This document shows, in pieces, positions 5,876 through 42,640 of a DNA stretch of 64,000 nucleotides. Both the position numbers and the translations under genes were made by a program. The first letter of the stretch is position 1. Every line of letters starts with the position of its first letter. The notes below the pieces were generated by a model. That model was not told where the DNA came from, made no database searches, and worked only from the letters and a program-made list of their open reading frames with translations. The stretch comes from an uncultured Candidatus Saccharibacteria bacterium (GTDB lineage Bacteria > Patescibacteriota > Minisyncoccia > Phycocordibacterales > UBA6899), in NCBI GenBank assembly GCA_964386905.1, contig CAYLUP010000002.1:522-64521 (forward strand), given 5' to 3'.

Positions 5876-5888
5876 GTCACAGTACGAC

Positions 5889-7725: not shown

Positions 7726-7874
7726 ATTCTTCAAAGGCTGAAATACTATTTCATCATTACTGACATCTGCAGCGTCGCGATCGAAGACATTTGTGTATTG
7801 CACAGGCATTGACAAAACAGTATGGCATGGCAATATGAACTCGAACCATTTGGTTCTTTGCCAGAGGAGGCGTT

Positions 7875-17662: not shown

Positions 17663-17692
17663 ACACACAACAATACTGTTGTGTGTTTTTTG
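17663..17692 (+). terminator. Rho-independent terminator
   Basis: acacacaacaatactgttgtgtgt followed by tttttt. Confidence 0.6.
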
Positions 17693-17739
17693 TGTATTGT
17701 TTTCTGTTCTTTAGAGATAAAACTTGTTACAATGAAGAC

Positions 17740-19565: not shown

Positions 19566-22500
19566 ATGTTTTTCCATTCATATCACTCGAAAAGAATACG
19601 TGCAGTATGGTCAACCATGCTTCTTTTTGGATTGTGTTGTGGAATACTGTACGCTCCTCATCTGCTCACTTTTTTTGCAGGAGGTAGCGAGGTTGCGATG
19701 AAAAAGGCAGAGGCATCATACCAGTTTGCCCCAACAGGGGGAGGCATTGTGATGGGCACAGCGCCCGCTGTACGTGCTGCAACAACCGCAGCGACCGAAG
19801 GGGTGAATGTGGGAGACTGGAAGGGTGCGAAGGCCGACGACAATTTGCACTTTGGTATCACCTCAACGGCATCCGGATATAATGCGTATCTTGATATTGG
19901 AAATGTTGAGTTGCATGGAGCAAACAAGTTCATTATAGAGACAGAGTTTGATCTCGACGCGACAATTCCTCAGACCCGCGTGCAAATTTGCGACTGGGTC
20001 TCGTCAACGGGCGTGGCGAATGCTGCTGATGCACAGTGTACTGGTGGCGGTTGGAGGAATTTGAATCTGAACGACACAGCCATAAATACTGCAACGTATG
20101 GAAGATATAGTTGGCATGTGTATGATGGGTATTGGAATAGTACTGCGACAACGAAAATTGCGACACCATTGTCAAATTTCGTGAACGGCTCCCAATCAAT
20201 TCGTGTTCGGTATTTTTCTACAACAAGTAGCGCTGCCTCTATTGTACACATTGATTATTTGCGTGTGTTTGCAGTGGTAAACCCCGTATATGCTCCTGCT
20301 GGGGTGACACAGATTTCAGGGGGAACGCCTCTTGGTGATTATTCTCTTGCCGCAATGGGCGGTATGGGCCAGACGGGATCGGATAACGCGTACTTTCGGG
20401 TTCCTGGCACCGTAGGTGCTCCGTCAGACTTCTACTATACCTTTGCAAACGTGAAGTATTTTGCTGGTGCAAACACAATTCTCTTTCGTGCGGAGCATTC
20501 CTGTTCTGGAACAAATGCAGGGGTGACATATCTTCCAAAGATTTTTAATTTTAACTCTCAGGTATGGGACGATCTAACGTCTACTCCTATTGCGTGCTCG
20601 ACGACAGACGCAACCAATGCATGGGCACGAAGTAATATTTCAATGGGGGACTATGTCAGTAATGGAGAAGTACGTGTCGGGTGGTATGCAACAACAAACA
20701 GTACATTGGAAATCCGCAATGACATCGCGTACATTATGATAGGAGCGGTCACAAATGGTACCAGCGAGATCACTTTTGGAACAAATGCTGGTGGCTCTGC
20801 GGCGAGCACACAAGACCTCGATATGACAGGTATCAGTAGTACATGGGACATTCAGTCTGTTGATGAATCAAACACGTTCAGTACGCCAATATATGCCTTT
20901 GATAATGATGCTGATGCAACCGTTGAGGAAGCATCGGCTGCAAATATCGATTTCTCTCTTCGTCCTCCTACGAACGCTGCGCTTGCGGGAATTTATTTTG
21001 CGGGAAGGTACCGCTCGGGAACTGCTGGGACCGTGAATCTTGGTGTCGCTGATATGGCTTCTCGAACGAATACACAAGGTGGCTGGACGCAGGTTGGTGC
21101 AAACGGAACAACGGCATTATTGTATTCCGATAACATCAGTGTGAGAGCGGTCACTTCAGGAGGGTCTGCTGGTCTGTATCTCAACCCAGAAGATTTTATT
21201 ATGGCAGAAACAGGGCGCATGAAGATGCGTTTGCGCACATCGACATCTGGTGCGACGACAAATAATTCTATTGCGCAATGGGATTTCGCGATGCTATCGC
21301 TTTCTTGGATTGAAGACATTGAGCATCGTTCTGGTGATTCATCATATACGCCATCGGGTGGTGGAATTGTGACTGGAACAGGCCCTGCTATTCTTGCTGC
21401 CACAGCAGCAAATACCGAAGGAACGAATCTTGGGAGTTGGCGTGCAACAAAAGCGGATGATAATTTTCATTTTGGTATTACGTCGACTGCATCAGGATAT
21501 AACGCATATATCGATTTTGATGATGTCTACCTCAATGGTGCGAATATTATGCACATCCAAACGGAGTTTGACCTTGACGCGACTGCTCCGCAGACCCGCG
21601 TGCAAATTTGCGATTGGGTCTCATCAACGGGTGTGGCGAATGCCGCTGATGCACAGTGTACTGGTGGAGGCTGGAGAAACGTAAGTCCGAATGATGCGCT
21701 GATTACTACAACAACACCAACTGCGTACCATTGGCAAATCTATGATGGATACTGGAACAGCACTGTAGTTGCAAAAATTTCAACTCCGTTAACAAATTTT
21801 GTGGATGGAAATAATACGGTCCGCATTCGATACTATTCCACAACAAGTAGTGCCGGTTCGATCGTCCATATTGACCACGCTCGCATTATGCCTGTTGTGA
21901 ATCCGGTGTATTCCGCATCTGGAGCAACACAGATTACTGGGGGGACTCCTCTCGGCGATTATTCTCTCACGGCTATTGGTGGTGCAGGGCAGACGGGGTC
22001 GGATAATGCATATTTTCGTGTTCCTGGAACCGCGGGTGCTGTTTCTGATTTTTACCTTTCATTTCAAAATGTAAAAACATACCCTGGGGCAAATGCAATC
22101 CTCGTACGTGCAGAGTATTCATGCTCTACGACTGGCATTTCCCATCGGCCTAAGATATATAACTTTAACTCGTCGAGCTGGGAGGATTTGACGACTGCTT
22201 CCATTGCATGTTCGACAACAGATGCTACGAATGCCTGGGCAAAAGGGAATGTGACAATTGCAAACTATATTTCGAATGGAGAAATTCGTATTGGATGGCG
22301 AGGACTGGCAAACGGAACACAGGAAATTCGTATTGATCTTGCATACGTGATGATTGGTACGGTGAACAACGGAACATCTTCAATAACCTTTGGAACGAAC
22401 TCCGCAGGAACTGCTGCAAATACTCAAACGCTTGATATGAATGGGACTGCGAGCACATGGAATATTGCTTCGGTTGATGAGTCGAATACTCTCGGTTTTG

Positions 22501-23426
22501 CAATAAACGCAAACGATAACGACAACGATGCGACTGTTGAAGAGGCTACGGCTGCTAATATGGACTTTACGTTGCGAGTACCAGAAAATGCATTCCCTAC
22601 AGGAGTATTTTTTGCAGGACGATATATGTCGGGGGTAGCGGGGACGGTAAATCTTGGTGTTGCAGACTATCGAGGAAAAACGAGTACCCAGGGGGGCTGG
22701 GTTCAGGTTGGTGCAAATGGAACAACTGCTCTGACCTATTCTGATAATATTACAATGGTGTCGGTTGCTTCGGGTGGCGCTGCTGGCTTGTGGACGAATC
22801 CGCGAGACTTAGTGAATGATACGGCGTCTACTATGAACATGCGCTTAAGAACATCTCTCTCTGGAGCAACAACAAATAATTCTGTTGCGCAGTGGGACTT
22901 CGCAATGCTGTCTTTGCAGTGGATAGAAACGCCTCCGCCACCATCGACGTTATCCTTTAGTATTTCAGATAACACGATTGGATTCGGAACACTCACTGCC
23001 GCACAAATGCGTTTCGCTTCAGGTGGTGGAGGGGGAAGTACATTGCAAATTTCCGCACATACTATTTCTGCCGCTTCAAATGCACCTGGTGGATACGTGG
23101 TAACGATTGATGGAGAGACGTTGACGTATGGGCCATATGAAATTTCTGCAGCAGGTGCAACTCCGATTATACCAACAGCTGGAATTGAGCAATTTGGTAT
23201 CAATGCAATAAAGACGTTCACGACAGGGTCTGGGTCTCCGCTCTACCCGTACTCTGCAGGTTTTGCTTTTGATATTGGGAATTTGCCGTCCCCAATTCTT
23301 GCAAACTATACAAACGACAACATTGAGGACACGTATGATATGTATTATTTGGCGAATATCTCTGCGGATACCGAAGCGGGAGAGTACGCTGCAGTGGTGA
23401 CATACACAGCAACAGCAACATTTTAA
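19566..23426 (+). CDS. Giant surface protein (1286 aa): N-terminal TM/signal, two about 540-aa tandem repeats, C-terminal pilin-like (SCPU/Csu-like) domain
   Basis: The repeat unit recurs with 1620-nt period (19739 vs 21358); the C-terminal about 150 aa (LSFSISDNTIGFG...YLANISADTEAGEYAAVVTYTATATF) is shared with the next two genes. Confidence 0.6.
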   Translation: MFFHSYHSKRIRAVWSTMLLFGLCCGILYAPHLLTFFAGGSEVAMKKAEASYQFAPTGGGIVMGTAPAVRAATTAATEGVNVGDWKGAKADDNLHFGITSTASGYNAYLDIGNVELHGANKFIIETEFDLDATIPQTRVQICDWVSSTGVANAADAQCTGGGWRNLNLNDTAINTATYGRYSWHVYDGYWNSTATTKIATPLSNFVNGSQSIRVRYFSTTSSAASIVHIDYLRVFAVVNPVYAPAGVTQISGGTPLGDYSLAAMGGMGQTGSDNAYFRVPGTVGAPSDFYYTFANVKYFAGANTILFRAEHSCSGTNAGVTYLPKIFNFNSQVWDDLTSTPIACSTTDATNAWARSNISMGDYVSNGEVRVGWYATTNSTLEIRNDIAYIMIGAVTNGTSEITFGTNAGGSAASTQDLDMTGISSTWDIQSVDESNTFSTPIYAFDNDADATVEEASAANIDFSLRPPTNAALAGIYFAGRYRSGTAGTVNLGVADMASRTNTQGGWTQVGANGTTALLYSDNISVRAVTSGGSAGLYLNPEDFIMAETGRMKMRLRTSTSGATTNNSIAQWDFAMLSLSWIEDIEHRSGDSSYTPSGGGIVTGTGPAILAATAANTEGTNLGSWRATKADDNFHFGITSTASGYNAYIDFDDVYLNGANIMHIQTEFDLDATAPQTRVQICDWVSSTGVANAADAQCTGGGWRNVSPNDALITTTTPTAYHWQIYDGYWNSTVVAKISTPLTNFVDGNNTVRIRYYSTTSSAGSIVHIDHARIMPVVNPVYSASGATQITGGTPLGDYSLTAIGGAGQTGSDNAYFRVPGTAGAVSDFYLSFQNVKTYPGANAILVRAEYSCSTTGISHRPKIYNFNSSSWEDLTTASIACSTTDATNAWAKGNVTIANYISNGEIRIGWRGLANGTQEIRIDLAYVMIGTVNNGTSSITFGTNSAGTAANTQTLDMNGTASTWNIASVDESNTLGFAINANDNDNDATVEEATAANMDFTLRVPENAFPTGVFFAGRYMSGVAGTVNLGVADYRGKTSTQGGWVQVGANGTTALTYSDNITMVSVASGGAAGLWTNPRDLVNDTASTMNMRLRTSLSGATTNNSVAQWDFAMLSLQWIETPPPPSTLSFSISDNTIGFGTLTAAQMRFASGGGGGSTLQISAHTISAASNAPGGYVVTIDGETLTYGPYEISAAGATPIIPTAGIEQFGINAIKTFTTGSGSPLYPYSAGFAFDIGNLPSPILANYTNDNIEDTYDMYYLANISADTEAGEYAAVVTYTATATF

Positions 23427-23460: not shown

Positions 23461-24510
23461 ATGATACACAGAATATGTTTTTGTTTCTCATTCTTCTTTT
23501 GTATGAGCATCGCATTTTTTGTTCCCGCTCAAACGCTTCTCGCTGCATCATTATTGCAGCTCTCTGACATGCTGTCTGCCCAACGCCCAAATGCTGAATC
23601 GAGTCATAGAATCCAGTTTCAAACTCCGACGGGTATTAATGCTCCTGGAGATACCATCGTCATCACCTTTCCTGCGGACTTTAATTTTACAGGCAAGGAT
23701 GCGACATTCGTAAATCTTTATCATGGTGCGACTGGCGGCGAAACAGAAGAGTATATTTCGACAACACCAACACTTGGATTTTGGGGCGCTGCTTTTTCTG
23801 GAACGCAGAATCGAGTGCTTACATTGACTCCTCCAGCTGATGGGGTGGGGCAAGCAGAGATTTTTGCGAATGAAATTGTCCGAGTAAGGTTAAATCCGAC
23901 TAACGCCCTTAATCCCTCGACTGCAGGAGACTATATCGTTGCCATCTCTGGCGGTTTTGGAGATACGGGAAGTATATTGGTCCCCATTATTAGTGATGAT
24001 CAGGTCTTCGTTTCTGCAACAGTTCCCCAAGCGCTTTCATTTTCAATTTCAGACAATAGTGTTGGTTTTGGTCCACTGTCTGCTTCTGTATCTCGTTATG
24101 CAACCGGAGATGGGACAGGGAGTGCTACTCCTGTCGTTGCGCATACAATAACCGCAAGCACCAATGCATCCGGTGGGTATAGTATTTCCCATGTGTCAGG
24201 GACGTTAACAAGCGGAGCGCATAGTATTGACGCCATTGGAGGAGTCCCATCAAGCCCAATTCCAGGATCAGAGCAGTTTGGAATTCGTGGAGACGCTGCG
24301 GGTGGAAAAGGAGTGATGTCAACACGGTATGGATCTGCTCAATATGCCCTCGATGCGAGTGGATTTCCAGATACTTTTGCTTATACTATGTTTGCAGGTC
24401 CAACTCCTGAGACAACGTATTCAATATATTATCTGGCAAATATTTCATCTGGTACCGAAGCAGGTGAATATGGTGCTCCTATAACCTATGTCGCAACTGC
24501 AATGTTTTGA
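23461..24510 (+). CDS. Secreted pilin-like protein, paralog 2 (N-terminal domain + SCPU-like C-terminal domain)
   Basis: Signal peptide; shares TPTG..A.DTI.ITFPADF.FT and ...SFSISDN..GFG...YLANIS.GTEAGEYGAPITYVATAMF with its neighbours. Confidence 0.55.
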   Translation: MIHRICFCFSFFFCMSIAFFVPAQTLLAASLLQLSDMLSAQRPNAESSHRIQFQTPTGINAPGDTIVITFPADFNFTGKDATFVNLYHGATGGETEEYISTTPTLGFWGAAFSGTQNRVLTLTPPADGVGQAEIFANEIVRVRLNPTNALNPSTAGDYIVAISGGFGDTGSILVPIISDDQVFVSATVPQALSFSISDNSVGFGPLSASVSRYATGDGTGSATPVVAHTITASTNASGGYSISHVSGTLTSGAHSIDAIGGVPSSPIPGSEQFGIRGDAAGGKGVMSTRYGSAQYALDASGFPDTFAYTMFAGPTPETTYSIYYLANISSGTEAGEYGAPITYVATAMF

Positions 24511-24592
24511 CATTATCCACATAGTGATGTGGATTTTATGTTATACTGAAATCAATAACATGTTCCATCATGTTGCGAGAAATTACTATACA

Positions 24593-25648
24593 ATGTTCTT
24601 CTTTATGATCAAAAAATATTCAGTATCTATCACGGCCCTTACACTTCTGGTGATTCTCTCTGGGTTACCGCAGTTTGTATTTGCTGCAGCACTCACAAAT
24701 CTTTCAGATACAATGTCTTCTGCAAAGATTAATACCGTATCGAGCCACGTCATTCGCTTTACAACGCCGACTGGTGCAAATGAAGCAACCGATACCATTA
24801 TCATTACTTTCCCAGCAGATTTTGATTTTACAGCAAAAGCTATTGGTTCAGTAACGTTTACACATGGCGCATCGACAGGCCTTGAAACAACTGAAACACT
24901 TGCCGCGGCTCCATCCGCTACTGCATGGGGGGCTGTCTTTTCGGGAACTGAAAATCGCATTTTAACACTCACAGCTCCAACAGATGGAACGGGAACTGCT
25001 GTTCTTGCCCCAGGAGATAAAGTTATTTTTACATACTCCAGCGCAAACTCTACAAATCCAAGTACTGCAAACTCCTACTCAGTTAGCATTGCGGGAACTT
25101 TTGGTGACACTGGTTCAATTTTGGTTAATGTTATCAATGATGACCAAGTTCTTGTTTCTGCAACTGTTCCACAATCACTGACCTTTAGTATCTCAGATAA
25201 CACAATTGGTTTTGGTTCATTAACTTCAGCATCGGCACGCTTCGCGACAGGTGATGCAAACGGGAGCGGAACAGAGACGGAAGCACATAATATTATTGTC
25301 GGAACGAATGCAGCAAATGGATACACGGTAAATCTTGCCGGTTCTACATTGACTTATGGTGGAAATACAATTACTGCGATTGGGGCAACAAACAGTGCAT
25401 CAACTCCAGGAAGCGAACAGTTTGGTTTGCGTATGAGTGCGTCTGGTGGGACTGGGGCAGTATCCGCACCATACGCAGCAGACGGATTCGCCTTTGACTC
25501 AGCGGCATTTCCTGATCAGATTGCATCTGCCGCGGGAGCATCTGCAAACACGACATACTCGGCACGCTATCTTGCAAACATCAGCCCATCGACTGAGGCT
25601 GGAGCGTATACTGCAACATTGACATATACTGCAACTGCAAACTTTTAA
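24593..25648 (+). CDS. Secreted pilin-like protein, paralog 3
   Basis: Start at internal Met (MFFFMIKKYS) giving a signal peptide; about 45 % identical to paralog 2 throughout; ends ...TYTATANF. Confidence 0.55.
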   Translation: MFFFMIKKYSVSITALTLLVILSGLPQFVFAAALTNLSDTMSSAKINTVSSHVIRFTTPTGANEATDTIIITFPADFDFTAKAIGSVTFTHGASTGLETTETLAAAPSATAWGAVFSGTENRILTLTAPTDGTGTAVLAPGDKVIFTYSSANSTNPSTANSYSVSIAGTFGDTGSILVNVINDDQVLVSATVPQSLTFSISDNTIGFGSLTSASARFATGDANGSGTETEAHNIIVGTNAANGYTVNLAGSTLTYGGNTITAIGATNSASTPGSEQFGLRMSASGGTGAVSAPYAADGFAFDSAAFPDQIASAAGASANTTYSARYLANISPSTEAGAYTATLTYTATANF

Positions 25649-25712: not shown

Positions 25713-26696
25713 ATGAAGCACATATTTGCTCTTACCCTCATTATTACTCCACTCTTTTTTTGTGTGCCTAGCGCGGATGCGTTAACTGTTTCGCCTGCAA
25801 AACAAGAAGTTCGTGCGAATCCTGGACAGGTATTGAAAGGTGAAATCGAATTGTTTAATGAACAGAATGAGACGAAAACCTTTTATACCTCATTTGAGAA
25901 TTTTGAGTCACGAGGTGATTCAGGTGCACCATACTTTATTGGTGCACAGGGTGGCCTGGCAACATGGATGAAATCTGAGGAATCTGTCACAATCGCTCCT
26001 GGTGACCGCATGAAGGTGCCATACACGATTACGATTCCTCAATCCGCAAAACCGGGTGGGTATTTTGCTGCACAGTTTTTCGGGACTGAAAAACCAAAAA
26101 CAGGTGATGGAAACCTTGCCATTGGAGGAAAGATTGGCGTCCTCTTTTTGCTTCGTGTTAATGGTGACGTTGAGGAGGCGGCGGGCGTAACTGGCTTTAC
26201 TACTGAGCAGAATCAACGTTTCTTTGTCTCTACTCCAATCCGATTTGAATATTTTGTGAATAACACAGGTGGTGATCGCGTTGTTCCAAAAGGAACTGTT
26301 GTCATTCGAAATTCTTTTCGAATGACAACAGAGAAGATATCTGCAAATGACAAAGAGGGGAGTGTCTTACCAAATGGCTCAAGAACATTTCCGGTATGGT
26401 GGGGTGACCCAGCAGCTTCTCTCAATAATGTATGTGATTCCAAAGATGATACATGCGTTCAAGGTGGTGGATTTTTTAGCCGTGTTGCATATGAGTGGAA
26501 GAATTTTCACTTCGGATGGTACTCTGCAACACTTGATGTTGCTTGGGGGGAAAAAGGTTCAACGATGAATGATACAATCCATTTCTTTGTACTTCCATGG
26601 CATCTTCTCCTCGCTCTTGCTGTTATCGCACTCGTGCTTTGGGGCCTTTTGAAAAAATATAATGCGTATATTATCGCACGTGCTGCAAAACGATAA
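25713..26696 (+). CDS. Secreted beta-rich protein with C-terminal TM anchor (chaperone/DUF916-like cell-surface protein, unknown function)
   Basis: Signal peptide; LTVSPAKQEVRANPGQVLKGEIELFNEQNETKTF strand pattern; C-terminal hydrophobic helix followed by KKYNAYIIARAAKR; translationally coupled (TAATG) to the dockerin gene. Confidence 0.4.
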   Translation: MKHIFALTLIITPLFFCVPSADALTVSPAKQEVRANPGQVLKGEIELFNEQNETKTFYTSFENFESRGDSGAPYFIGAQGGLATWMKSEESVTIAPGDRMKVPYTITIPQSAKPGGYFAAQFFGTEKPKTGDGNLAIGGKIGVLFLLRVNGDVEEAAGVTGFTTEQNQRFFVSTPIRFEYFVNNTGGDRVVPKGTVVIRNSFRMTTEKISANDKEGSVLPNGSRTFPVWWGDPAASLNNVCDSKDDTCVQGGGFFSRVAYEWKNFHFGWYSATLDVAWGEKGSTMNDTIHFFVLPWHLLLALAVIALVLWGLLKKYNAYIIARAAKR

Positions 26697-27739
26697 TGTT
26701 CCTTCTTTATCGAAAATTTTCTTTTCGTGTCGCACTCGCCTTTGCGTTTTGTGTACCTCTCGCCGCACTTGCTGCCATTACCGTAGAAATTACGGCTACT
26801 GTCCCTGGGTGCGGCGATAGTGTTATTGGCGTTGGTGAGCAGTGCGACACAACAAATCTTGGGGGTGCGACATGCTCTACGCTTGGGTATGCCTCTGGCG
26901 TTTTGTCATGTTCCAGTGTGTGTACGTATGTTACAAGTGCATGCAGTGTGACGCCGGTAACGCCTCCGAGTGGTGGTGGTGGCGGCGGCGGATATTATGC
27001 TGTTCCAGCAACAAATATCGTCTTTTCCGGGAAAGCATATCCACGAAGTACGGTGACCATATTAAAAGATGCTCAAGTTGTTGCAACGACCATTGCCGAT
27101 GCACAGGCTGAATTCCAAACAACGATATCGGGTATTTCATCGGGAAATTATAATTTTAGTGTCTACTCAGAGGATGATCGCGGTGTGCGCTCCTCGCTTT
27201 TGTCTTTTCCTATAAGTGTGAGTTCTGGGGTGACAACAAAAATTGGAAATATCTTTATTGCGCCAACACTTTCGGCAGATAAAACTGAAGTTCGAAAGGG
27301 TGACGATATTGTATTGTTTGGAAGAACAACCCCAAATGCAGAGGTGTCTATCTCAGTTCATTCTTCAGTTGAGATGTTTTTCAAGCGACTCGCTGATGCA
27401 AGTGGTGCCTACCTTTTTCGTATTAATACACTCCCACTAGAGTATGGGGCACATGCAGCAAAAACAAAATCAGCGCGCGATGAGGAGCTGAGTTCCTTCT
27501 CGCAATCAGTTGGTTTTACTGTTGGAATAAAAAATATTGCATCTCTGTCGCAACCTGGCGTGCATCAGCAATGGTCAAAAGGTGATGTCAATAAGGATGG
27601 CCGTGTGAATCTTGTGGATCTTTCTATTGTGGCGTATTGGTATAAAAATGCGTCTTACCCAAAGCATCTTGATTTAAATGGAGATGGCCATGTGAATCTG
27701 GTCGACTTAAGTATCCTTATGTATTTTTGGACTGGCTAA
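26696..27739 (+). CDS. Secreted Cys-rich protein with Gly7 linker, two Ig-like beta domains and a C-terminal type-I dockerin
   Basis: C-terminus GDVNKDGRVNLVDLSIVAYWY...DLNGDGHVNLVDLSILMYFW = two canonical Ca-binding dockerin repeats; N-terminal about 50-aa domain with 8 Cys. Confidence 0.8.
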   Translation: MFLLYRKFSFRVALAFAFCVPLAALAAITVEITATVPGCGDSVIGVGEQCDTTNLGGATCSTLGYASGVLSCSSVCTYVTSACSVTPVTPPSGGGGGGGYYAVPATNIVFSGKAYPRSTVTILKDAQVVATTIADAQAEFQTTISGISSGNYNFSVYSEDDRGVRSSLLSFPISVSSGVTTKIGNIFIAPTLSADKTEVRKGDDIVLFGRTTPNAEVSISVHSSVEMFFKRLADASGAYLFRINTLPLEYGAHAAKTKSARDEELSSFSQSVGFTVGIKNIASLSQPGVHQQWSKGDVNKDGRVNLVDLSIVAYWYKNASYPKHLDLNGDGHVNLVDLSILMYFWTG

Positions 27740-27740
27740 T

Positions 27741-28589
27741 ATGCGTACATATTTCATTGTTATTTTTATGGCACTCTTTGCTCCCGCAAGCGTGTTCGCC
27801 TACGAGTTTCGTGCAGAGGTGCGCGAAACACAGATTGGGCCAGGGTCTACGGTTATTGTTGATCTGAAACTTGCAGCGCGGACACTAGTAAATGCGTGTG
27901 AAGGATATCTTCAGTATGACAGTTCCGCATTTGATATCGTTCGTATTTCTTCTGGAAATTCTGTTGTTAATTTTTGGATCGAGGAGCCAAAAGTCACTGA
28001 GTACGGGATTCGATTTTCAGGAGCAACTCCTGGTGCATTCTCTGGGCAAGATAATCACGTGTTGAGTGTGGCATTTCGTGCGAAGCGAGAAGGCATTTTT
28101 GATTTTGTTCCCCATTCTTCTGTCGTATATTTGTCTGACGGGCATGGTACATCACTTGTGCCTCGAGCTCACGCAGCAGCTGTCTCCGTTGATGGTTTTG
28201 CTCGTAGTGAGCATGTCGTGGATGGAGACACTGAGCTTCCTGAGGATTTTACCCCATTTATTGTTGAGCATCCTGATATGTTTTCTGGAGAGAAAACTCT
28301 TATCTTTGCGACGCAAGATAAAGGATCGGGAATCTCACATTATACTGTCAAAGAGGGATTGCTCGGGTGGTATCGCACAGCATCTTCTCCCTATCTCTTG
28401 AAACATGATGCATTGCATCGTACAATATATATACGAGCCTATGACCATGCGGGGAATATCCGCACAGTCATCATTCCCGCTACTGTACCGCGTTCAGCAT
28501 TCTCTTGGTGGATGGTTGGTGGACTCACCGTTCTTACCTGTTTCGCACTTTTGACAATAGTATGGAAAAAATATTTCATCAGACGATAA
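27741..28589 (+). CDS. Membrane-anchored cohesin-domain protein 1
   Basis: Signal peptide; cohesin-like LKLAARTLVNACEGYLQYDSSAFDIVRISSGNSVVNF...HVLSVAFRAKREGIFDF; C-terminal TM plus KKYFIRR stop-transfer. Confidence 0.7.
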   Translation: MRTYFIVIFMALFAPASVFAYEFRAEVRETQIGPGSTVIVDLKLAARTLVNACEGYLQYDSSAFDIVRISSGNSVVNFWIEEPKVTEYGIRFSGATPGAFSGQDNHVLSVAFRAKREGIFDFVPHSSVVYLSDGHGTSLVPRAHAAAVSVDGFARSEHVVDGDTELPEDFTPFIVEHPDMFSGEKTLIFATQDKGSGISHYTVKEGLLGWYRTASSPYLLKHDALHRTIYIRAYDHAGNIRTVIIPATVPRSAFSWWMVGGLTVLTCFALLTIVWKKYFIRR

Positions 28590-30280
28590 TTGCTTTTTGC
28601 TTTCTTGCATTCCCATGCATATCTTTTGCTGCAACCCTGTCGCTTGCACCGTCAGTATTTTCGCCACAGGTTGGGAGTACTTTTGTCGTTAATGTGAATG
28701 TGTCGACTCCTGATAAGGTGATGAATGCCGCTTCAGGAGTTCTTTCGTACGACCCTGCGCTTCTTGAAATTATCTCTGTGTCCAAGACAGGGTCTATCGT
28801 GTCCTTGTGGGCAGAGGAGCCACTATTTGACAATACTAGCGGCCGCATGAGTTTTGAGGGTATTTTATATGCGCCAGGGTATTCTGGCCCGTCTGGCAAA
28901 ATTTGCGCAATTACATTTAAGGCAAAAGCCGTTGGCAGTACAGTACTTCGCTTCACAAATGGCTCGGTGTTGGCAAGTGATGGATATGGGGAGAATATTC
29001 TTTCTTCCATGAGCCCGCTCTCTCTTGCTGTTGGACAGCCCACCAAGAAGCAAGTTCCTATCTCGCTTGCTGGCGAGGTAGAGAAAGAGCCTGTTCGAAT
29101 ATTTGGGCGTGCAGTTGCAATTACATCAAGTTCACACCCAGATGCGAACGCGTGGTATGCAAATAATTCTCCCGTGTTTTCTTGGGTTCTCCCCGAGGGT
29201 GCACTCGAAGTTAAGACATTAATTAGTCGTCTCAGCTCACGAAATCCAACTGTCCCGTACATTCCACCAATTGCTGAGAAAAAGGCGGAAAAAGTGATTG
29301 ATGGGACACATTATTTTAGTCTTCAGGTTCGGACGAGGGATGGTTGGTCTCCAACATCACGATATCAGGTGAACATTGATACTGTCCCGCCAAATAAATT
29401 TACTGTCGCTATTGTAAACGAAGACCGAGATAAAAAAACTCCCCCACATATTGCATTCGAAACACAAGATGCACTTTCTGGTGTCAGTCATTATGAAGTG
29501 CGTGTTGATGATGGCGAGGTTATGCGGACATCTTCTCATGACATGAAAGATCCGTTTGCGATTCCCGCACTTCCTCCTGGTGGTCATATTGTTACTGTTT
29601 CCGCCTTTGACCACGCAGGGAATATGACGCAAGCAGCACTAGATTTTACGGTAGATGCCATTCCTTCTCCTAAAATCATTGCGCTTCCACAGGTTGTCTA
29701 TGGGGGAGAGCGGTCAGAGATTCGAGGAATCTCATCCCCGTTTGATACTGTTTTCGTGAGATATTCTGATGGTAATACCTTTATACATGAAGAATCAGTA
29801 ACGACGGGGGAGGCTGGGGCATTCGTGATACCAGTAACCTCAAAAATTCCACGTGGTTCATATATAGTTTCTGCGTATGCTGTTGATCGGTCTTTGTCGC
29901 GAAGTTACGAAACAACACCAGCTATCCTCTCTCTCCGGCCGTTTTATGTAAAGGCGTCATTTCTTGCATTTGCGCTTTTTGGCGTTTTGTTCCTTGTTGC
30001 TATTGGGGCAACTATCGCTATGTGGTTATATGCGCGTCGACACGGAGAACGTGTTGCACGTGTTGCTCTTATGCGCATTCGATATGCTGAACAGGAGACA
30101 GAAAAGGCCTTTGATATTTTAAGAGAGGAAATTATTGAACGTGTTGCGCTGCTTAAGGCAAAGAAGCCAAAAAGGAAATATACTGCAGAAGAAGTACACT
30201 TCCTTGAGACACTTGAGAGCTATCTTGGAGAGGCGAAGGATGTCATCGTTTCAGATGTTCGAAAAGTTATTGAAAAATAA
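28562..30280 (+). CDS. Membrane-anchored cohesin-domain protein 2 (cohesin + Ig-like domains + TM + cytoplasmic coiled tail)
   Basis: N-terminal cohesin: VVNVNVSTPDKVMNAASGVLSYDPALLEIISVSKTGSIVSLW...KICAITFKAKAVGSTVLRF (compare CipA cohesins); TM at about aa 480; 28-nt overlap with the upstream gene. Confidence 0.75.
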   Translation: MEKIFHQTIIAFCFLAFPCISFAATLSLAPSVFSPQVGSTFVVNVNVSTPDKVMNAASGVLSYDPALLEIISVSKTGSIVSLWAEEPLFDNTSGRMSFEGILYAPGYSGPSGKICAITFKAKAVGSTVLRFTNGSVLASDGYGENILSSMSPLSLAVGQPTKKQVPISLAGEVEKEPVRIFGRAVAITSSSHPDANAWYANNSPVFSWVLPEGALEVKTLISRLSSRNPTVPYIPPIAEKKAEKVIDGTHYFSLQVRTRDGWSPTSRYQVNIDTVPPNKFTVAIVNEDRDKKTPPHIAFETQDALSGVSHYEVRVDDGEVMRTSSHDMKDPFAIPALPPGGHIVTVSAFDHAGNMTQAALDFTVDAIPSPKIIALPQVVYGGERSEIRGISSPFDTVFVRYSDGNTFIHEESVTTGEAGAFVIPVTSKIPRGSYIVSAYAVDRSLSRSYETTPAILSLRPFYVKASFLAFALFGVLFLVAIGATIAMWLYARRHGERVARVALMRIRYAEQETEKAFDILREEIIERVALLKAKKPKRKYTAEEVHFLETLESYLGEAKDVIVSDVRKVIEK

Positions 30281-30310
30281 AACACGACAACGTCGTGTGT
30301 TATTTTTGGA
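30281..30310. terminator. Bidirectional terminator
   Basis: acacgacaacgtcgtgt followed by tattttt; convergent genes. Confidence 0.55.
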
Positions 30311-31175
30311 AAATATCCCACAACTCGTTAGAAGAATAAAAGAGAGCCCCAAGTTCTCCGTACGTGTATACGTGACCACCTGTTTCAATTTGAGCACCGC
30401 CAATGACAGGTGATTCTTTGGGGGATGATTTCTCAAAACCCAGATTAAAGAGTGTTGTGAGAACGCCGGCATTGCCTGAGATGTCATATCCGGCCTTTTT
30501 CCATTGTGCAGTAATCTCTTGGATAAATATTGCAGTGTAGAGATAGGAAAAATAATGATCTTTCGCATCTGTAAGGCGTTGATAGAGTTGTTCTCCCGAG
30601 CGTGTCTGCGTGGGGTAGGCGATAAGTGGCGAAATGTGATTTCCTGGATATAAGGGAGAGGAAGAATCTAATGCATACCTTTCTATTGCTTCAGCAGTTT
30701 CTTGTTTAATCCCAGTTACGCCAAGTGAAAATTGCGAGAGAGAGCCGAGAATTTTTAATGGTTCAAAATATCTTTTAAACACCTCTCTTTCTGCTGTGAA
30801 GAAGCGAATTTGTTCGGGGACAACTATGCTTGCAATAATGCGTGGGGATGCACCAGTCTCCTTCGCAACACGATTGATAATGTGAGCGTCCTTTCGAAGT
30901 CCTTCACGAACAACGGCCCACTCTGCTGTTTCATTCCAAGAGCACACAGACTCCTCTTCGGAGATGCAGGTTCCTGAATGTATTGAGTCATCTGGGGTGT
31001 GTTGTGTTTGTGTCGTAGGCGCTGTGCTCTGGAAAAATTTGTTTCGTTCTGAAATAGATCCGCGAACATTGAAGAGTCCAAAATGCATTGCGACAAATAC
31101 AAAAGTAAAGAGAAGCCCAATTCCAGCGAATATGAGCGTGAGGATAATCACCGTTGTACGAAGATGTCGATGCAT
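30300..31175 (-). CDS. Membrane-anchored hypothetical protein
   Basis: About 291 aa from MHRHLRTT; one N-terminal TM then a soluble domain; unknown family. Confidence 0.4.
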   Translation of the reverse strand: MHRHLRTTVIILTLIFAGIGLLFTFVFVAMHFGLFNVRGSISERNKFFQSTAPTTQTQHTPDDSIHSGTCISEEESVCSWNETAEWAVVREGLRKDAHIINRVAKETGASPRIIASIVVPEQIRFFTAEREVFKRYFEPLKILGSLSQFSLGVTGIKQETAEAIERYALDSSSPLYPGNHISPLIAYPTQTRSGEQLYQRLTDAKDHYFSYLYTAIFIQEITAQWKKAGYDISGNAGVLTTLFNLGFEKSSPKESPVIGGAQIETGGHVYTYGELGALFYSSNELWDIFQK

Positions 31176-31232
31176 TGCTGCACGATTATGACGTATTTTA
31201 ACTCTTTTCGCAATGGCGTATACTATGGATAT

Positions 31233-31760
31233 ATGCGACGAGTCATTGTCCACGATAAGATGCAGGATGGGTATGTATATGTGTGTACAGAGCCTGTAGG
31301 GAAAAACTTTCATCCTGATTTCCGCCCAGATCTCAATCCGCAAGAACTTCTTTCTCTCGGTGTTTTTGGTGGACGCTATCTCCGTGATTGTCGACAGGAG
31401 TTTCCTTCATCGTGGTTTTCTCATGGACGTTTCCATGAAGAGGGTATCCCAGGGCATTCTCCTGCGTTGAATTGTTTTGGTGTTGATGCAAGCCAACCTC
31501 TTTCCGTATGGAGAGACAAGGGGTGGATCAACCATGCGCACGACCCTCGAGGGTGGTTTCAGTGGTATTGCCGTTATTATATGGGGCGGAGACTGGAAGA
31601 TGAGGATAATCGACAAATACAGCGCTGGAAAGCGATGAGAAGACACCTGGCACAGCTGACGAAACATTGCTCTGGAAAAGGGGATGGATGTAGGAAAAAA
31701 CAGCGCCAAGCACTCCTCCATTGGGCGTATGATACGAGAGATGCACATACTCGGCACTAG
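31233..31760 (+). CDS. Basic Trp-rich hypothetical protein
   Basis: About 175 aa (MRRVIVHDK...); GWFQWYCRYYMGRR; no recognised family; the start is uncertain (31188 possible). Confidence 0.35.
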   Translation: MRRVIVHDKMQDGYVYVCTEPVGKNFHPDFRPDLNPQELLSLGVFGGRYLRDCRQEFPSSWFSHGRFHEEGIPGHSPALNCFGVDASQPLSVWRDKGWINHAHDPRGWFQWYCRYYMGRRLEDEDNRQIQRWKAMRRHLAQLTKHCSGKGDGCRKKQRQALLHWAYDTRDAHTRH

Positions 31761-32211: not shown

Positions 32212-34245
32212 CTATGGTGTGTTTTTTTGAAAGACAATCCGAACATGAAGGCCACCATGCGTACTCTTGTGATATGTAATGTTTCCTTGGTGTGTTCGGA
32301 TAACGTGGTGTGCAATCGCGAGCCCAACTCCCTTAGTGTTGTGTTGTTTATGAACATCAAGTAGTGGCGTTCCGAGGAGTGGAAAATATACTTCTGGTAC
32401 ACCGATACCATTATCCTCGATATCAAGAATTATCCGTTCTTTCTGCTCTGTTACACAAAACCATGTTGTGAGTGTCGCCCCTTCTTTTGGATGCTCAGCA
32501 GCGTTTTTGAAAATTTCGAGCAACGCACGTTTTAGGAGGAGCGGATTTCCTTCGATAGGCATATCGCCCATGTCGTGTTTGGTGTTTATCTGTTGTGTAC
32601 ACGAGGCGACAACGTCCTTGAGAAGTGTGCGGAGAGAATGTACTTCTCCTGCTGAAATGATTGTGCTTTGTACGCGAACGAGATCAATAAGGCCCTGGAT
32701 GGTAATTTGTGATTGCTCAAGTACGGCATGCTGTGCGTCGTGTGCATTTTTTCTCCTCGTAAGTGAGATGAGATATTCTCGAAATCGTGCAATATATAGT
32801 GATGTCTGTGTTTTTCTCTCATCTTTTTCTTCTCGCTGCATTTGCTGAATGCGAGAAAGGGTGGAAGAAAGCTTCGATTTTTCTTGTTGTAGTTGCTCAA
32901 TACATCCAACACGTAAGAGTAGTGGAGAAATAGTGTGTGCCAGATCTGTTAGAAACCGGATGTCATTTTGAGTACACGTTCGAGACTTATTTTTGAGCTT
33001 TCCAGTGAGTACACCGATCATATGATTCTTGCATATGATAGGGATAAGAATGTCTGTATCGATTGTATTCATTGCTTGTTGCGCACATGTTTTATGCTCA
33101 TATTCTGTTTCAGGGATACCATAGAGGACTGTCTCTTGTGTGTATGCTGGTGGATTCGTTGAAGATTTCATCCGAGCGACAGAAAGTTCTGCGATTGCGT
33201 TGCCAACGTTTGTCGGGCAACGCGCAGCAGTGAAGAGACGAACATGCGCTAAGCCAATGTAATCATGAGCAATACGAATAATCATGTGTTCAATGTCAAT
33301 ATACGATGAAGCAAGCATGAGCTGTTGAAGAATTTCATTCGGGAGTGGTTGATCGGTATGCGGGGAAGTTGTGCGCGTTCTTATTGTGTGAATGACGCGA
33401 ATAGCTTTGTTCCCAAGATAAACCGACAATACATAAATGCACCCTGCAATTATTATTGCGCTGAGCATATCATCCGTACGTTTATAGAAGAACGCGAGCC
33501 CAACAATGCAGAGAGGAATGCTTGTTATCCATGGAATAGCATGAAGTAGGAGGGAGAGGAGGATGTGTCGAATACTAATGTAATATTCTTGGAGAACAAG
33601 AAAAACAATACTTCCGGCAAGAGATGTCGAAAAAAGTGGTCCCGCGCTATTTAGCTTTGGAAAATCAAAAAAATTTGGGAGAATAACATTCGTGATAATA
33701 CTTGCAACGATTGTACACGTCATGACCGAGAGAAACCAAAAGAATTTTTGTCGAAGAAGCGGATTGAAAGAGCGCTTGAAGCGGTGAAGAAGAATGAGCG
33801 TAGGGAGAATCCCGCCCAATGAAATCAATATACTAAAAATGACATGCTGAACATCGCGTTCAATAGAGAGATGTCCTGTGGCGTGGATGTGAAGATTACG
33901 AACAAGAAGGTGTGGTGTGCTTGCAAGAAGTATTGCAAGGAGTGTTGGAATGAAAAAGATTACGTGTTTATGTGTAAGCGTATTGCTTGGGAACATTAAT
34001 GCAAACGCTGTAAGCCCCATCAGGCCAATTGGCGCACTCATAAAGGCACCTTGGGCAAAGGTCCAGTGACCAGTAAGGAGGGTGAGGAGAAGCATGCAAG
34101 ACCATCCGAAGACACCGGTGAGGAAAATAAGCAACGCATACTCGTATGGTCGAGAGAGGCCTCGGCGGATGAGTATAATCCCTGCCCAAATCATGGAAAG
34201 TGCAGAGAGTGTAAGTAAGGTATATTCAATCAGTAACACCGACAT
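32212..34245 (-). CDS. Sensor histidine kinase with polytopic N-terminal membrane domain
   Basis: 677 aa; about 8 TM helices N-terminal; C-terminal HATPase_c (N-box NAAEHP, DNGIGVP, GVGLAIAHHV); no adjacent response regulator. Confidence 0.7.
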   Translation of the reverse strand: MSVLLIEYTLLTLSALSMIWAGIILIRRGLSRPYEYALLIFLTGVFGWSCMLLLTLLTGHWTFAQGAFMSAPIGLMGLTAFALMFPSNTLTHKHVIFFIPTLLAILLASTPHLLVRNLHIHATGHLSIERDVQHVIFSILISLGGILPTLILLHRFKRSFNPLLRQKFFWFLSVMTCTIVASIITNVILPNFFDFPKLNSAGPLFSTSLAGSIVFLVLQEYYISIRHILLSLLLHAIPWITSIPLCIVGLAFFYKRTDDMLSAIIIAGCIYVLSVYLGNKAIRVIHTIRTRTTSPHTDQPLPNEILQQLMLASSYIDIEHMIIRIAHDYIGLAHVRLFTAARCPTNVGNAIAELSVARMKSSTNPPAYTQETVLYGIPETEYEHKTCAQQAMNTIDTDILIPIICKNHMIGVLTGKLKNKSRTCTQNDIRFLTDLAHTISPLLLRVGCIEQLQQEKSKLSSTLSRIQQMQREEKDERKTQTSLYIARFREYLISLTRRKNAHDAQHAVLEQSQITIQGLIDLVRVQSTIISAGEVHSLRTLLKDVVASCTQQINTKHDMGDMPIEGNPLLLKRALLEIFKNAAEHPKEGATLTTWFCVTEQKERIILDIEDNGIGVPEVYFPLLGTPLLDVHKQHNTKGVGLAIAHHVIRTHQGNITYHKSTHGGLHVRIVFQKNTP

Positions 34246-34294
34246 AGGTATACTTCACTATACCACATTCAAAAGAAAAAGCCCCCAAGGGGCC

Positions 34295-34939
34295 TTAGGA
34301 AACATGTTGCATGTGAAGAACGCTCTCAGTAAGTGAGATGTGAAGCGTAGGAAGAGTTGTTGTATCAAACTGAGAGAATGCATGTGGAATCGCTTCGGTT
34401 TCTGTTGTATATGTTGCCCTTCCTGCGCGGAGATATCTCTCGAGTTTTTCTTGGAATACAGGATCTATGTTTTTTGGAATTGCCGTTCCAAGATTTGAGA
34501 ACTCAATACCGAAGATCTTTGAAAATCGCGAAAGGAGCTTGTCTCCAACAAAGACGATATGGGATATGCCTTGTTGGTATGCTGCGAGCCCGGCTGAAAG
34601 GATTGTTGTTGCGGCAAGAAGTTGAATTTGTTTTTTCTCAACGCGTTCAACGTCAACAGCAAGTGCACCTATTTCCGCAAAAGCCGAGCGAGGGGCACGT
34701 GCGTTGATGTGGTACAAAATGGGTCTGTCAAAAAAACGTTCAAAAAAAAGAGGGGAGTGTGTTTCGGCCATGAAAACACCCGTAGTTGCAATCGGAACAT
34801 TGTCTTCACAAATACATGAAAATATATCCGCATGCGCTGGGTTTTCAACACCGAGTCTGTGTGTATATTGTGTGTCGACGAATGCTCGTGCGAGTTGGTA
34901 ATAGTGCTCGCCAGGTTTTGTGATATGCAGGTAGCGCAT
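34295..34939 (-). CDS. Hypothetical protein, possibly GNAT-fold acyltransferase (FeeM / thermostable-hemolysin-like)
   Basis: 214 aa; weak resemblance only. Confidence 0.25.
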   Translation of the reverse strand: MRYLHITKPGEHYYQLARAFVDTQYTHRLGVENPAHADIFSCICEDNVPIATTGVFMAETHSPLFFERFFDRPILYHINARAPRSAFAEIGALAVDVERVEKKQIQLLAATTILSAGLAAYQQGISHIVFVGDKLLSRFSKIFGIEFSNLGTAIPKNIDPVFQEKLERYLRAGRATYTTETEAIPHAFSQFDTTTLPTLHISLTESVLHMQHVS

Positions 34940-41173: not shown

Positions 41174-41251
41174 AAACGGGAATTCCCGTTTTTTGTTTGC
41201 CTCAGTTTGCGTTGTGTTGCGTGCTTGAACGAACGGTCACGTTTTCGTGGT

Positions 41252-42640
41252 AAAATGGTTATATCTATGATGGACAGAACGCATCCGTTTCGTATTTTTT
41301 TTACTGTTTTTCTTCCGGTATTGATAATTACCAGCGCTTTGTTGATTATCCCGCAGTACTCTTTTGCGGTGTCTTGTACTGCCGATGTAGGAAACGATCG
41401 CACGCTTTTGGAACAGCAAATGAAAGCATGTGATGAAGAAGTTGTGGAACTGAATAAGACAATTGATGGTCTTCTGAAGCGTGGAAAAACTTATAATAAT
41501 GAAATTGAGCTTCTCCGTGCACGTATTCAAAAAGCGCAATCGAACATAAGGGCGAAAAATGTACAAATTTCTCGATTGTCAGAAGATATTTCAAAGAAGA
41601 CAAGCGAGGTCAATCGATTGTCAAATAAGCTTGATCGTGAACGGCAGTCGCTCGCACAACTCGTTCGAAGGACGGCAGAATATGATCAAGTCTCTCTTGT
41701 TGAAGCCTTGCTTTCTGGAGACAACATCTCCGGATTTTTCCAGGACGTTGATGAGTTTGTGTCTCTCCAAGAAGCGTTAAGTCATTCAGCACAAACATTA
41801 AAGCAACTCCGAAAAGAGACAGAAGATGTCCGAACAAGTCTTGAGGAGAAAAAAGATAAAGAGCTTGATGTGAAGATTGAGCTCGAGAGGGCGCGTACGG
41901 AGCATGAGCAAAATCAAAAAGAACAACAAAAACTATTGGCCCTGACGAAAAATAAAGAAAAGGAATTTCAGAATGTGCTTGCAGATAGAAAGAAACGCAT
42001 TGCAGCGATTCGTGAAGCCTTGTTTAAACTTCAGGACGACACGCAGATTTCTTTTGGACAGGCATACGATTATGCGTTAGAAGCAGAAAAAGATCTTGGA
42101 ATTCGGCCCGCATTTCTTCTCGCAATTTTTTCACAAGAATCAAATTTTGGAAAATTCGTAGGAGGCTGCGTTGTTACAGATGAGCTTGGAAATGGTAAAC
42201 GTATTAAATCTGGAGAAAAGCTGACTCGCGTGATGGCTGCTCCACGAGATACAGTGCCATTTAAGAAAATCGCGGATGCATTAGGAAAAGATATGTACAG
42301 CACACCAGTCTCATGCCCTCTTTCATATGGATATGGAGGCGCTATGGGTGCTGCACAATTCATTCCATCAACCTGGATTAACTTTGTTCCTCGGGTACAA
42401 AAACTTGTTGGATCATACCCAAATCCATGGAACCCACGTCACGCTTTCATTACTTCAGCCATGTATCTTACTGATCTTGGCGCCGGAAAGCGTACTCCAA
42501 GTGCAGAGCGTACTGCTGCTTGTAAGTATTATTCTGGTGCAGCGTGTGGCGTGCGAACTGGTTCCGCGGCGTACGGTGATTCTGTGCTAAGGAAAGCGGA
42601 GACGATTCAGAAGACGATGATCGATCCGATGAATCAATAA
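41252..42640 (+). CDS. Membrane-anchored coiled-coil protein with C-terminal lytic transglycosylase (SLT-like) domain
   Basis: TM, about 250-aa coiled coil, then AIFSQESNFG (catalytic Glu-Ser) and AMGAAQFIPSTW motifs. Confidence 0.65.
   Translation, partial: KMVISMMDRTHPFRIFFTVFLPVLIITSALLIIPQYSFAVSCTADVGNDRTLLEQQMKACDEEVVELNKTIDGLLKRGKTYNNEIELLRARIQKAQSNIRAKNVQISRLSEDISKKTSEVNRLSNKLDRERQSLAQLVRRTAEYDQVSLVEALLSGDNISGFFQDVDEFVSLQEALSHSAQTLKQLRKETEDVRTSLEEKKDKELDVKIELERARTEHEQNQKEQQKLLALTKNKEKEFQNVLADRKKRIAAIREALFKLQDDTQISFGQAYDYALEAEKDLGIRPAFLLAIFSQESNFGKFVGGCVVTDELGNGKRIKSGEKLTRVMAAPRDTVPFKKIADALGKDMYSTPVSCPLSYGYGGAMGAAQFIPSTWINFVPRVQKLVGSYPNPWNPRHAFITSAMYLTDLGAGKRTPSAERTAACKYYSGAACGVRTGSAAYGDSVLRKAETIQKTMIDPMNQ

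Follow-up and report, generated by a model that had tools for sequence, protein, structure and literature searches.

The stretch of DNA analysed here, referred to as the window, comprised 64,000 nucleotides (nt) from an uncultured Candidatus Saccharibacteria bacterium (contig CAYLUP010000002.1, positions 522 to 64,521 of the forward strand; GTDB lineage Patescibacteriota, Minisyncoccia). At 26696–30280 on the + strand, three adjacent genes encode one dockerin protein and two cohesin proteins, each of the latter anchored by a transmembrane helix. They form a conserved cassette that invariably closes a larger pilus operon at its 3' end. The full mechanistic reading of this arrangement, to which we attach an even chance, is that the three genes serve as the module by which a Pam-type pilus, built by donor-strand exchange, is attached to the membrane of a Paceibacteria/Parcubacteria bacterium. 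The original prediction, made from the letters of the window, had described a cohesin-dockerin module in a small-genome, apparently non-cellulolytic bacterium, and a genuine non-cellulosomal dockerin with two transmembrane cohesin proteins was indeed found in a small-genome Patescibacteria lineage. However, the feature proved to belong to a very large conserved family and not to this genome alone, and what had been read as a minimal scaffold was the terminal part of the pilus operon. The triad is real and highly conserved; there is nothing unusual in a cohesin-dockerin pair outside cellulosomes, but the triad's place as the invariable last cassette of a Pam-type pilus operon, together with a donor-strand mimic, is unexpected.

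Homologues of the dockerin protein were found in large numbers. Hundreds were full-length (~345 amino acids, aa) with 50–60% identity, and their named sources were Kaiser-, Nomura-, Taylor- and Wolfebacteria, 'Parcubacteria' and Minisyncoccia, the taxon names of related loci being taken from protein-match annotations only. When 1.84 billion cluster representatives were searched with a profile of the family, 2,134 clusters matched at E≤1e-30. For 87 related loci that were gathered, open reading frames (ORFs) were sorted with hidden Markov models (HMMs) seeded from the window. This showed that a cohesin-family ORF came next after the dockerin gene in every locus with at least 600 nt of downstream sequence (77/77), and that a short (~300 aa) and a long (~580 aa) cohesin protein were both present wherever at least 3 kb was available (47/47). 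Pilin-like and chaperone-like genes always lay upstream of the dockerin gene in the related loci, and orthologues of a 327-aa protein lay directly 5' of it in most.

In the window, the ORFs at 23.4–30.3 kb were all on the + strand and densely packed. The gene for the 327-aa protein and the dockerin gene overlapped by 1 nt, a 1-nt gap separated the dockerin stop from the start of the first cohesin gene, and the two cohesin genes overlapped by 28 nt; the dockerin and cohesin gene junctions are translationally coupled. A bidirectional terminator-like hairpin (30282–30298, assigned to neither strand) began two bases past the stop codon of the second cohesin gene, at the end of the operon, and another terminator-like hairpin was seen at 24515–24534, 3' of the first pilin gene.

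The dockerin protein (26696–27739, +; 347 aa), identified through Pfam Dockerin_1 and Big_6 matches and its orthologue family, is read here as an adaptor. It ended, as predicted, in a type I dockerin of two near-identical repeats (aa 295–347, 27578–27736; PF00404, 44.7 bits against a cutoff of 22.9). Both repeats (DVNKDGRVNLVDL, aa 297; DLNGDGHVNLVDL, aa 326) had the ~22-residue form that defines this type, in which a DxNxDGxxxxxD Ca2+ loop is followed by a helix, and the loop residues D297, N299, D301, D308, N328, D330 and D337 were invariant among 41 orthologues. The repeats share the motif VNLVDLSI, and their near-identity is in keeping with a dual binding mode, or with two cohesins being engaged. 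At the other end, a signal peptide was followed by a short, lone β-strand, AITVEITATVP, at the predicted mature N-terminus (aa 27–37, 26774–26806), which is proposed as a donor strand from its conservation among orthologues and its likeness to pilin strands. Next came a cysteine module (aa 39–83, 26810–26944), a Gly7 hinge where one had been predicted (aa 93–99, 26972–26992), and two Ig-like stalk domains (aa ~103–280, 27002–27535) that belong to the core of the family; the first matched Big_6 at aa 103–168 (33 bits, cutoff 27.6) and the second was a β-rich region. The poly-Gly hinge was invariant in the 41 aligned orthologues, and so were the six cysteines of the mature protein (C39, 50, 60, 72, 76 and 83). 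The eight-cysteine module of the original prediction was therefore a miscount, the seventh cysteine (C19) lying inside the signal peptide.

The cysteine module (~45 aa) had the pattern CGDxxxxxGEQCDxxNLGGxxCxxLGxxxGxLxCxxxCxxxTSxC and no match in Pfam, even where it was arrayed in tandem; the Myxococcus Cys-repeat model of NCBIfam was tried, gave no match and was dropped. Such tandem arrays occurred in surface proteins of Myxococcota/Deltaproteobacteria with 46–57% identity to the module (L006, 9839–11578; L007, 9947–12217), and up to ~70 copies were present in giant proteins of at most 6,626 aa. A single-protein search of genome contigs returned three loci, two of which were from Myxococcota or Deltaproteobacteria and had the cysteine module alone in common with the window.

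Across the family in the 1.84-billion-protein library, profile positions 80–342, from the hinge through the Ig-Ig stalk to the dockerin, were constant and the head was variable. The cysteine module was accompanied or replaced by FN3 or other domains, or was missing altogether. Among 11 short variants sampled, seven had no folded head, and in these a lone strand led through a linker rich in N, G and P to the stalk and dockerin. Strands of this kind included GVSVTAQVQIEEV, NISVEILGP, EVSITAQVQG and TSVTIIANP. The cysteine module is a dispensable head, and the presentation of a Cys-rich ligand domain, suggested earlier as the purpose of the system, is hard to maintain for a module that many members replace or lack. 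A lone β-strand on a flexible tether is unable to fold by itself, and a donor strand has just this appearance.

The genes upstream encode putative pilus subunits. NCBIfam (June 2026) contains a model for the 'Pam pilus system pilin subunit' (NF058581, CPR_Pam_pilin_C; cutoff 55 bits), which matched three proteins: that of 19566–23426 (58.3 bits), that of 23461–24510 (64.9 bits) and that of ORF 24488–25648 (84.7 bits). Pilin 1 (23461–24510, +; 349 aa) was composed of an N-terminal domain, a donor or linker strand and, C-terminally, an acceptor domain. Pilin 2 was 50% identical to it and comprised ~347 aa when read from M40 of its ORF (24605–25648, +). The strand stood directly before the acceptor domain in both (DDQVFVSATVP in pilin 1, DDQVLVSATVP in pilin 2), and the acceptor domain read Q[AS]L[ST]FSISDN... 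in both. The third protein (19566–23426, +; 1286 aa) matched the model at aa 1163–1286 and contained two ~530-aa tandem repeats, 68% identical, a PPPP linker and the Pam acceptor domain at its C-terminus. Its segment before that domain, WIETPPPP, was not strand-like. The protein is a candidate tip adhesin because it has an acceptor domain without a donor strand, and a duplicated N-terminal part. Outside the C-terminal Pam domain it matched no family, and its N-terminal part had no homologue among the 87 related loci, which suggests a fast-evolving, lineage-specific adhesin. Sortase-dependent pili were considered and rejected, as the eight operon proteins contained no LPx[TSA]G motif and thus no LPXTG signal.

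The same division, recognised from the sequence pattern, between pilins with a strand before the C-terminal domain and big proteins without one was seen in every locus with enough flanking sequence, comprising 28 loci organised like the window (type A) and 24 of a second kind (type B). In type B loci, a ~175-aa protein consisted of a strand and an acceptor domain and a protein of 600–1400 aa ended in the same domain; the assignment was based on gene organisation and on this C-terminal domain common to small and big proteins. A third flavour was observed in four loci (L015, L016, L067 and L081), where the dockerin protein began SNFRIEIL or TTNITIEIL, the chaperone-like ORF (384 aa, with a LysM-like end) was placed further upstream, and the big upstream protein ended ...DYSINMTLTVTAL, resembling the dockerin strand.

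The strand that follows the signal peptide of the dockerin protein was conserved in the 41 orthologues, with an alternating β pattern and the consensus xTVxITAxVPGCGD, and it resembled the donor strands of pilins encoded at the same locus. In the window, ITVEITATVP in the dockerin protein corresponded to DQVLVSATVP in the pilin. Elsewhere the pairs were DQVIITGTVP and DQVAVSGTVS (L045), GTVDISGTVP and DSVAVSGTVV (L011), TLTVTIQS and AVTLTVTVA (L021), and ATVIATVKV and ATVAATVTV (L032). The likeness was evaluated by a fixed-register permutation test on 9-mers, in which shifts of 0–5 residues were allowed equally for real and permuted pairs. Among 25 non-redundant type A loci, the same-locus score was 19.24, compared with 16.13±0.75 after shuffling (p = 1e-4), and separate tests of the type A sub-clades gave p = 0.02 and p = 0.004; for all 43 loci, the score was 17.79 against 14.34±0.58 (p = 2e-5). 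As controls, tip segments preceding the C-terminal domain scored 5.07 against the dockerin strand, and within the 60 N-terminal residues the highest-scoring 9-mer reached 10.0 for chaperone-like proteins, 7.9 for cohesin 1 and 12.2 for cohesin 2, compared with 17.9 for the dockerin protein. An earlier test, which took the best match anywhere in the upstream ORFs, found no meaningful difference (20.2 versus 18.7). The same-locus matching supports the identification of a probable donor strand in the dockerin protein, not conclusively.

These results bear on the possibility that the three proteins are a stand-alone surface display, in which the Cys-rich head binds a host ligand, the cohesins merely anchor it and the pilus genes are neighbours by their common use in adhesion. 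The domain identities are as expected for such a display, and the variability of the head, with its cysteine module, FN3 and other inserts, is that of host-specific ligand binders. Moreover, a dockerin-domain protein was essential by transposon sequencing in the saccharibacterium Southlakia epibionticum, for which host-glycan targeting was speculated (PMC10633639). Yet the seven headless variants keep the N-terminal strand, that strand is specifically like the donor strands of same-locus pilins, and the linkage with pilin and chaperone-like genes was invariant across 87 loci. We therefore consider a stand-alone display unlikely.

The two downstream proteins had both been predicted to be cohesins. 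For cohesin 2 this was confirmed by HMM (ORF 28505–30280; PF00963, 36.4 bits against a cutoff of 24.1), and the two peptides quoted earlier as cohesin sequence, VLSYDPALLEIISVSK and ICAITFKAKAVGSTVLRF, were present in it. Cohesin 1 (27741–28589, +; 282 aa) remained below the cutoff at 19.5 bits, and only 10 of its 55 orthologues matched Pfam Cohesin at E<0.01. The original prediction had named a sub-threshold cohesin score as grounds for its refutation, and one protein of the two formally fell there. Nevertheless, cohesin 1 is identified as a cohesin by its paralogy with cohesin 2, by profile matches and by the fold of its model. BLASTP aligned the two proteins over the cohesin part (32% identity, E = 8e-12) and over the Ig-like part that follows it (33% identity, E = 3e-7). 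Among PDB sequences, a profile of the 55 orthologues matched only cohesins, weakly (E = 0.005–0.05). An AlphaFold2 model built with 71 homologues (pLDDT 91.6) had cohesins for all of its best 44 Foldseek matches in the PDB, with target TM-scores of up to 0.79; these included the Clostridium perfringens cohesin+FN3 structure 2w1n (E = 7.6e-10), 2vo8 (TM-score 0.77) and 2xdh of Archaeoglobus fulgidus (0.79). By these matches the cohesin 1 model has the cohesin fold, which is defined as a nine-stranded β-sandwich.

Both proteins had the predicted C-terminal transmembrane helix. In cohesin 1, a signal peptide, the cohesin (aa ~21–150) and an Ig/FN3-like region preceded the helix (aa 253–276), which was followed by KKYFIRR; the tail was of ~5 aa, the length also found in its orthologues. 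Some orthologues of cohesin 1 were ~150 aa longer (442–470 aa in L025, L028, L033, L069 and L085); database entries for long forms (P0146, P0161 and P0219) carried the four-helix-bundle families PF05635/PF22296, the name '23S rRNA-intervening-sequence protein', or GxxExxY/PDDEXK_3, and a small gene may have been inserted in or fused to the cohesin gene. Cohesin 2 (28562–30280, +; 572 aa) likely begins at M20 of its ORF, nt 28562. It comprised a cohesin domain (nt ~28661–28984), Ig-like domains including Big_13 (32.1 bits in Pfam), a transmembrane helix (aa ~485–508 of the long ORF, nt ~29957–30028) and the cytoplasmic tail that had been predicted for it, ~80 aa, charged and helical (nt 30029–30277). 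The tail was conserved in 45 orthologues (median 77 residues, highly charged; consensus …REAExxLHKAFDLLKEDIxxQIKMLEKTKxKRQLTEEEEKI…) and could link the surface complex to something intracellular.

The closest known system is the Pam pilus, described in a 2026 preprint for Ca. Mycosynbacter amalyticus (Troman et al., bioRxiv 10.64898/2026.03.03.709456). Its pilin has two domains and donates a linker strand to the open C-terminal Ig-like domain of a neighbour; PamT, at the tip, has the acceptor domain alone; PamC and PamD are PapD-like chaperones with a transmembrane helix; and PamR, encoded last in the operon, an RbmA-like protein with an N-terminal strand, two FnIII domains and a transmembrane helix, is the proposed terminator and anchor. 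The system is reported mainly from Saccharimonadia and Microgenomatia, and the preprint mentions neither cohesin, dockerin nor Parcubacteria. The window operon agrees with it in having the Pam acceptor domain in its pilins, a donor strand before that domain, an acceptor-only tip protein, an accessory β-sandwich protein anchored by a transmembrane helix, and Sec secretion with neither usher nor sortase. It differs in having one chaperone-like protein and a duplicated tip protein of 1286 aa. A further difference concerns the base of the filament: PamR is one polypeptide, whereas its combination of a free N-terminal strand and a transmembrane helix was found in no single protein of the operon. 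A strand and two Ig domains are combined in the dockerin protein, where the dockerin takes the place of PamR's transmembrane helix, so that the anchor function appears to be shared by the dockerin adaptor and the two transmembrane cohesin proteins.

The mechanism that we infer for the operon would run as follows. The genes would encode, in order, the tip adhesin, two pilins, the β-sandwich protein with its transmembrane anchor, the dockerin adaptor and cohesin anchors 1 and 2, all of which Sec would export. The pilins would polymerise as each subunit's strand, which precedes its C-terminal domain, entered the C-terminal domain left open by the previous subunit. The dockerin protein, since it has a donor-like strand and no acceptor domain, could do no more than cap the proximal end, and would thereby terminate growth; its Gly hinge and Ig-Ig stalk would span the envelope, and its Ca2+-type dockerin would plug into the cohesin of either membrane-anchored protein, or of both. 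A PamR-like terminator and anchor would thereby have been split into a 'strand, two Ig, dockerin' part and a 'cohesin, Ig, transmembrane helix' part. The earlier suggestion that the module might dock pilin-like proteins pointed in the right direction. The cohesin-dockerin pairing is an element of the mechanism proposed here, as are strand insertion and the anchoring role.

The 327-aa protein (25713–26696, +) permits a different division of labour. Its AlphaFold2 model (pLDDT 89.2) had two β-sandwich domains and a C-terminal transmembrane helix (aa 296–326). In Foldseek searches of the PDB, it matched RbmA of Vibrio cholerae (E = 1.6e-11), the Enterococcus faecium WxLIP structures 9i1y and 9i25, including a WxL-bound form (E ~4e-10, with the best TM-scores), and the chaperone CsuC of archaic chaperone-usher pili (E = 1.6e-7). 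It had a weak Pfam match to WxLIP_PGBD and none in NCBIfam. From its model, it is a candidate for either a PamC/D-like chaperone or a PamR/WxLIP-like anchor. Should the latter apply, the 327-aa protein would be the true PamR-like anchor, and the dockerin-cohesin proteins might constitute an envelope-spanning, usher-like assembly platform or a transient cap that primes subunits, possibly with regulation through the cytoplasmic tail of cohesin 2. Such a platform agrees with the resemblance of the protein to both RbmA and WxLIP, with the description of PamR as RbmA-like with a transmembrane helix (10.64898/2026.03.03.709456), with the AlphaFold2 prediction that a hairpin strand of WxLIP inserts into WxL domains (PMC10599100), and with the conservation of the ~77-aa cytoplasmic tail of cohesin 2. 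However, the strands of the 327-aa protein started at aa 24, straight after the signal peptide, with no extra strand before the first domain, and it was the only chaperone-like protein of the operon, where donor-strand exchange needs a chaperone; for these two reasons a chaperone-like role is favoured. Furthermore, with one donor-like strand and no acceptor groove, the dockerin protein is more plausible as a terminal subunit than as a catalyst. An assembly platform is therefore judged improbable.

Several observations weigh against the dockerin protein as a pilus terminator held by the cohesins. Loci of type B, taken alone, showed no significant same-locus matching (p = 0.19), and their pilin-like proteins had no match to the NCBIfam Pam model. 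Kinship among loci inflates and confounds the same-locus matching test, and strands rich in T, V and A score well through composition, the permuted mean already being 14–16. The best fold matches of the 327-aa protein were RbmA and WxLIP, of which the former is the analogue of PamR, so that this protein could be the anchor and the dockerin protein could have another role. The model does not account for there being two cohesin proteins, nor for the conserved cytoplasmic tail. Finally, the pilus, the binding and the complex are read, for this lineage, from sequences and models of single proteins.

The original prediction had described one dockerin protein, with no glycoside hydrolases nearby, and both statements were borne out. 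A second dockerin was found neither in the window, by HMM and by regular expression in six frames, nor in the flanks of the 87 related loci, and the ~47 window ORFs scanned with Pfam contained no glycoside hydrolase, carbohydrate-binding module or polysaccharide lyase domain; the only glycan-active candidates were an SLT_2 lytic transglycosylase (41207–42640) and a weak DUF1402-like match (30300–31343, −). Although cellulosomes are the most familiar setting of cohesin and dockerin, and the inspection covered 64 kb of the genome, it is very improbable that the cohesins are scaffolds of a conventional cellulosome-like system recruiting dockerin enzymes encoded elsewhere: the many dockerin-bearing carbohydrate-active enzymes and the multi-cohesin scaffoldin with a carbohydrate-binding module that define a cellulosome were absent from the window, no additional dockerin occurred within ±10 kb in related loci, each cohesin protein had a single cohesin and its own transmembrane helix, and the dockerin protein was a non-enzymatic, 1:1 conserved orthologue.

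Cohesin and dockerin modules outside cellulosomes have been described (Peer et al. 2009, PMC3035643; cited in PMC10066038). The window proteins resemble such pairs (C. perfringens GH84C, 2w1n; A. fulgidus, 2xdh) in having single modules and no cellulose-degrading context, and non-cellulosomal cohesins, including the cohesin+FN3 arrangement, provided the closest folds to cohesin 1. They differ in that the known modules belong to toxin or glycosidase complexes, or are orphans, whereas those of the window constitute an invariant three-gene cassette in a pilus operon, in which the cohesin proteins are bitopic and the stalk that bears the dockerin is non-enzymatic and has a donor-like strand.

There are also similarities with the WxL clusters of Firmicutes (PMC10599100), which contain a small one-domain protein, a large protein with the same C-terminal domain and a protein of two Ig domains with a transmembrane helix; WxLIP is predicted to insert a strand into that domain, and its structures are matched by the 327-aa protein. 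The counterparts in Pam-type operons are a small pilin that consists of, or ends in, the C-terminal domain, a large protein with the same domain at its end, and the protein of two Ig domains with a transmembrane helix. In contrast, cohesin-dockerin genes are absent from WxL clusters, for which no filament formation is known, and no WxL domain was found in the window pilins by Pfam at E≤1. The motif EAGAYTATLTYTATANF at the C-terminus of the pilins looks like a WxL motif in which Y stands for W. Pam pili and WxL clusters may have a common origin, of which no discussion was seen in the Pam preprint (10.64898/2026.03.03.709456). Further parallels lie in other envelopes. A PapH-type terminator ends donor-strand polymerisation, and cohesin-bearing envelope proteins of the SdbA/OlpB type hold dockerin assemblies. 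By analogy, the window system would combine a terminal subunit with a cohesin-bearing envelope anchor; it differs in having no outer membrane or usher, a transmembrane helix instead of SLH (S-layer homology) domains or sortase, and a filament instead of enzymes as cargo.

Other features of the window were those of its chromosomal setting. The G-C content was ~45%, nearly every gene was on the + strand, G-C skew was above zero in nearly all 2-kb bins, and its cumulative value climbed almost monotonically; from this skew and strand bias, the window is part of one replichore and its + strand the leading strand. It looks like a chromosome segment of a small-genome Patescibacteria, and housekeeping genes surround the operon (SecA, GyrB, AlaRS, PheST, a release factor, L25 and MnmA). 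Adjoining the tip adhesin gene, a secreted Ser/Pro-rich protein of 624 aa (17683–19557, +) may be associated with the operon, its membership being uncertain; it matched no family in Pfam or NCBIfam, and a homologue lay 5' of the pilins in one related locus (L010). About 2 kb 3' of the operon, beyond three short ORFs, one of the few minus-strand blocks (32212–34939, −) encoded a 677-aa histidine kinase with multiple transmembrane helices, matched by HATPase_c only, together with a protein of the 'thermostable hemolysin' family (PF12261). Near the start of the window, an IS200-like Y1 transposase gene (3594–4310) was adjoined by a radical SAM/SPASM enzyme gene (4649–5875), which may form a peptide-maturation cluster with small unannotated ORFs (5872–8393). 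A tRNA-Thr(TGT) gene (55060–55133) lay within the 5' part of the ORF called as PheS (54958–56016); the real pheS start is placed 3' of the tRNA because the Pfam match began at aa 104 and the tRNA lay inside the ORF.

Patescibacteria, or the candidate phyla radiation, make up a large part of bacterial diversity and are apparently attached to hosts, and their means of holding on are mostly unknown. The locus indicates that a variant of the Pam system with a cohesin-dockerin pilus base exists in the Paceibacteria, a much larger group than the Saccharimonadia. A search of the literature, in which most papers in subscription journals were out of reach, found none linking dockerin or cohesin to donor-strand pili, Pam pili or Paceibacteria. 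We propose, with slightly less than even confidence, that a cohesin-dockerin joint fastens the pili of Paceibacteria/Parcubacteria, the largest class of that radiation, to the cell, in which a terminator inserts its N-terminal strand into the last pilin and its dockerin into two membrane cohesins, one of them with a conserved cytoplasmic tail. Cohesin-dockerin bonds are among the mechanically strongest between proteins, and would suit a load-bearing adhesion filament. If the proposal is true, it would represent a new principle of pilus anchoring for bacteria without an outer membrane, and the first physiological role assigned to a non-cellulosomal cohesin-dockerin pair conserved throughout a class, such modules thereby gaining a concrete and testable function. 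It would also offer small, soluble and recombinantly tractable domains, namely a strand peptide to pair with the pilin C-terminal domain and the dockerin to pair with each cohesin, for the study of attachment in unculturable organisms, and may account for the essential dockerin protein of a cultivated saccharibacterium.

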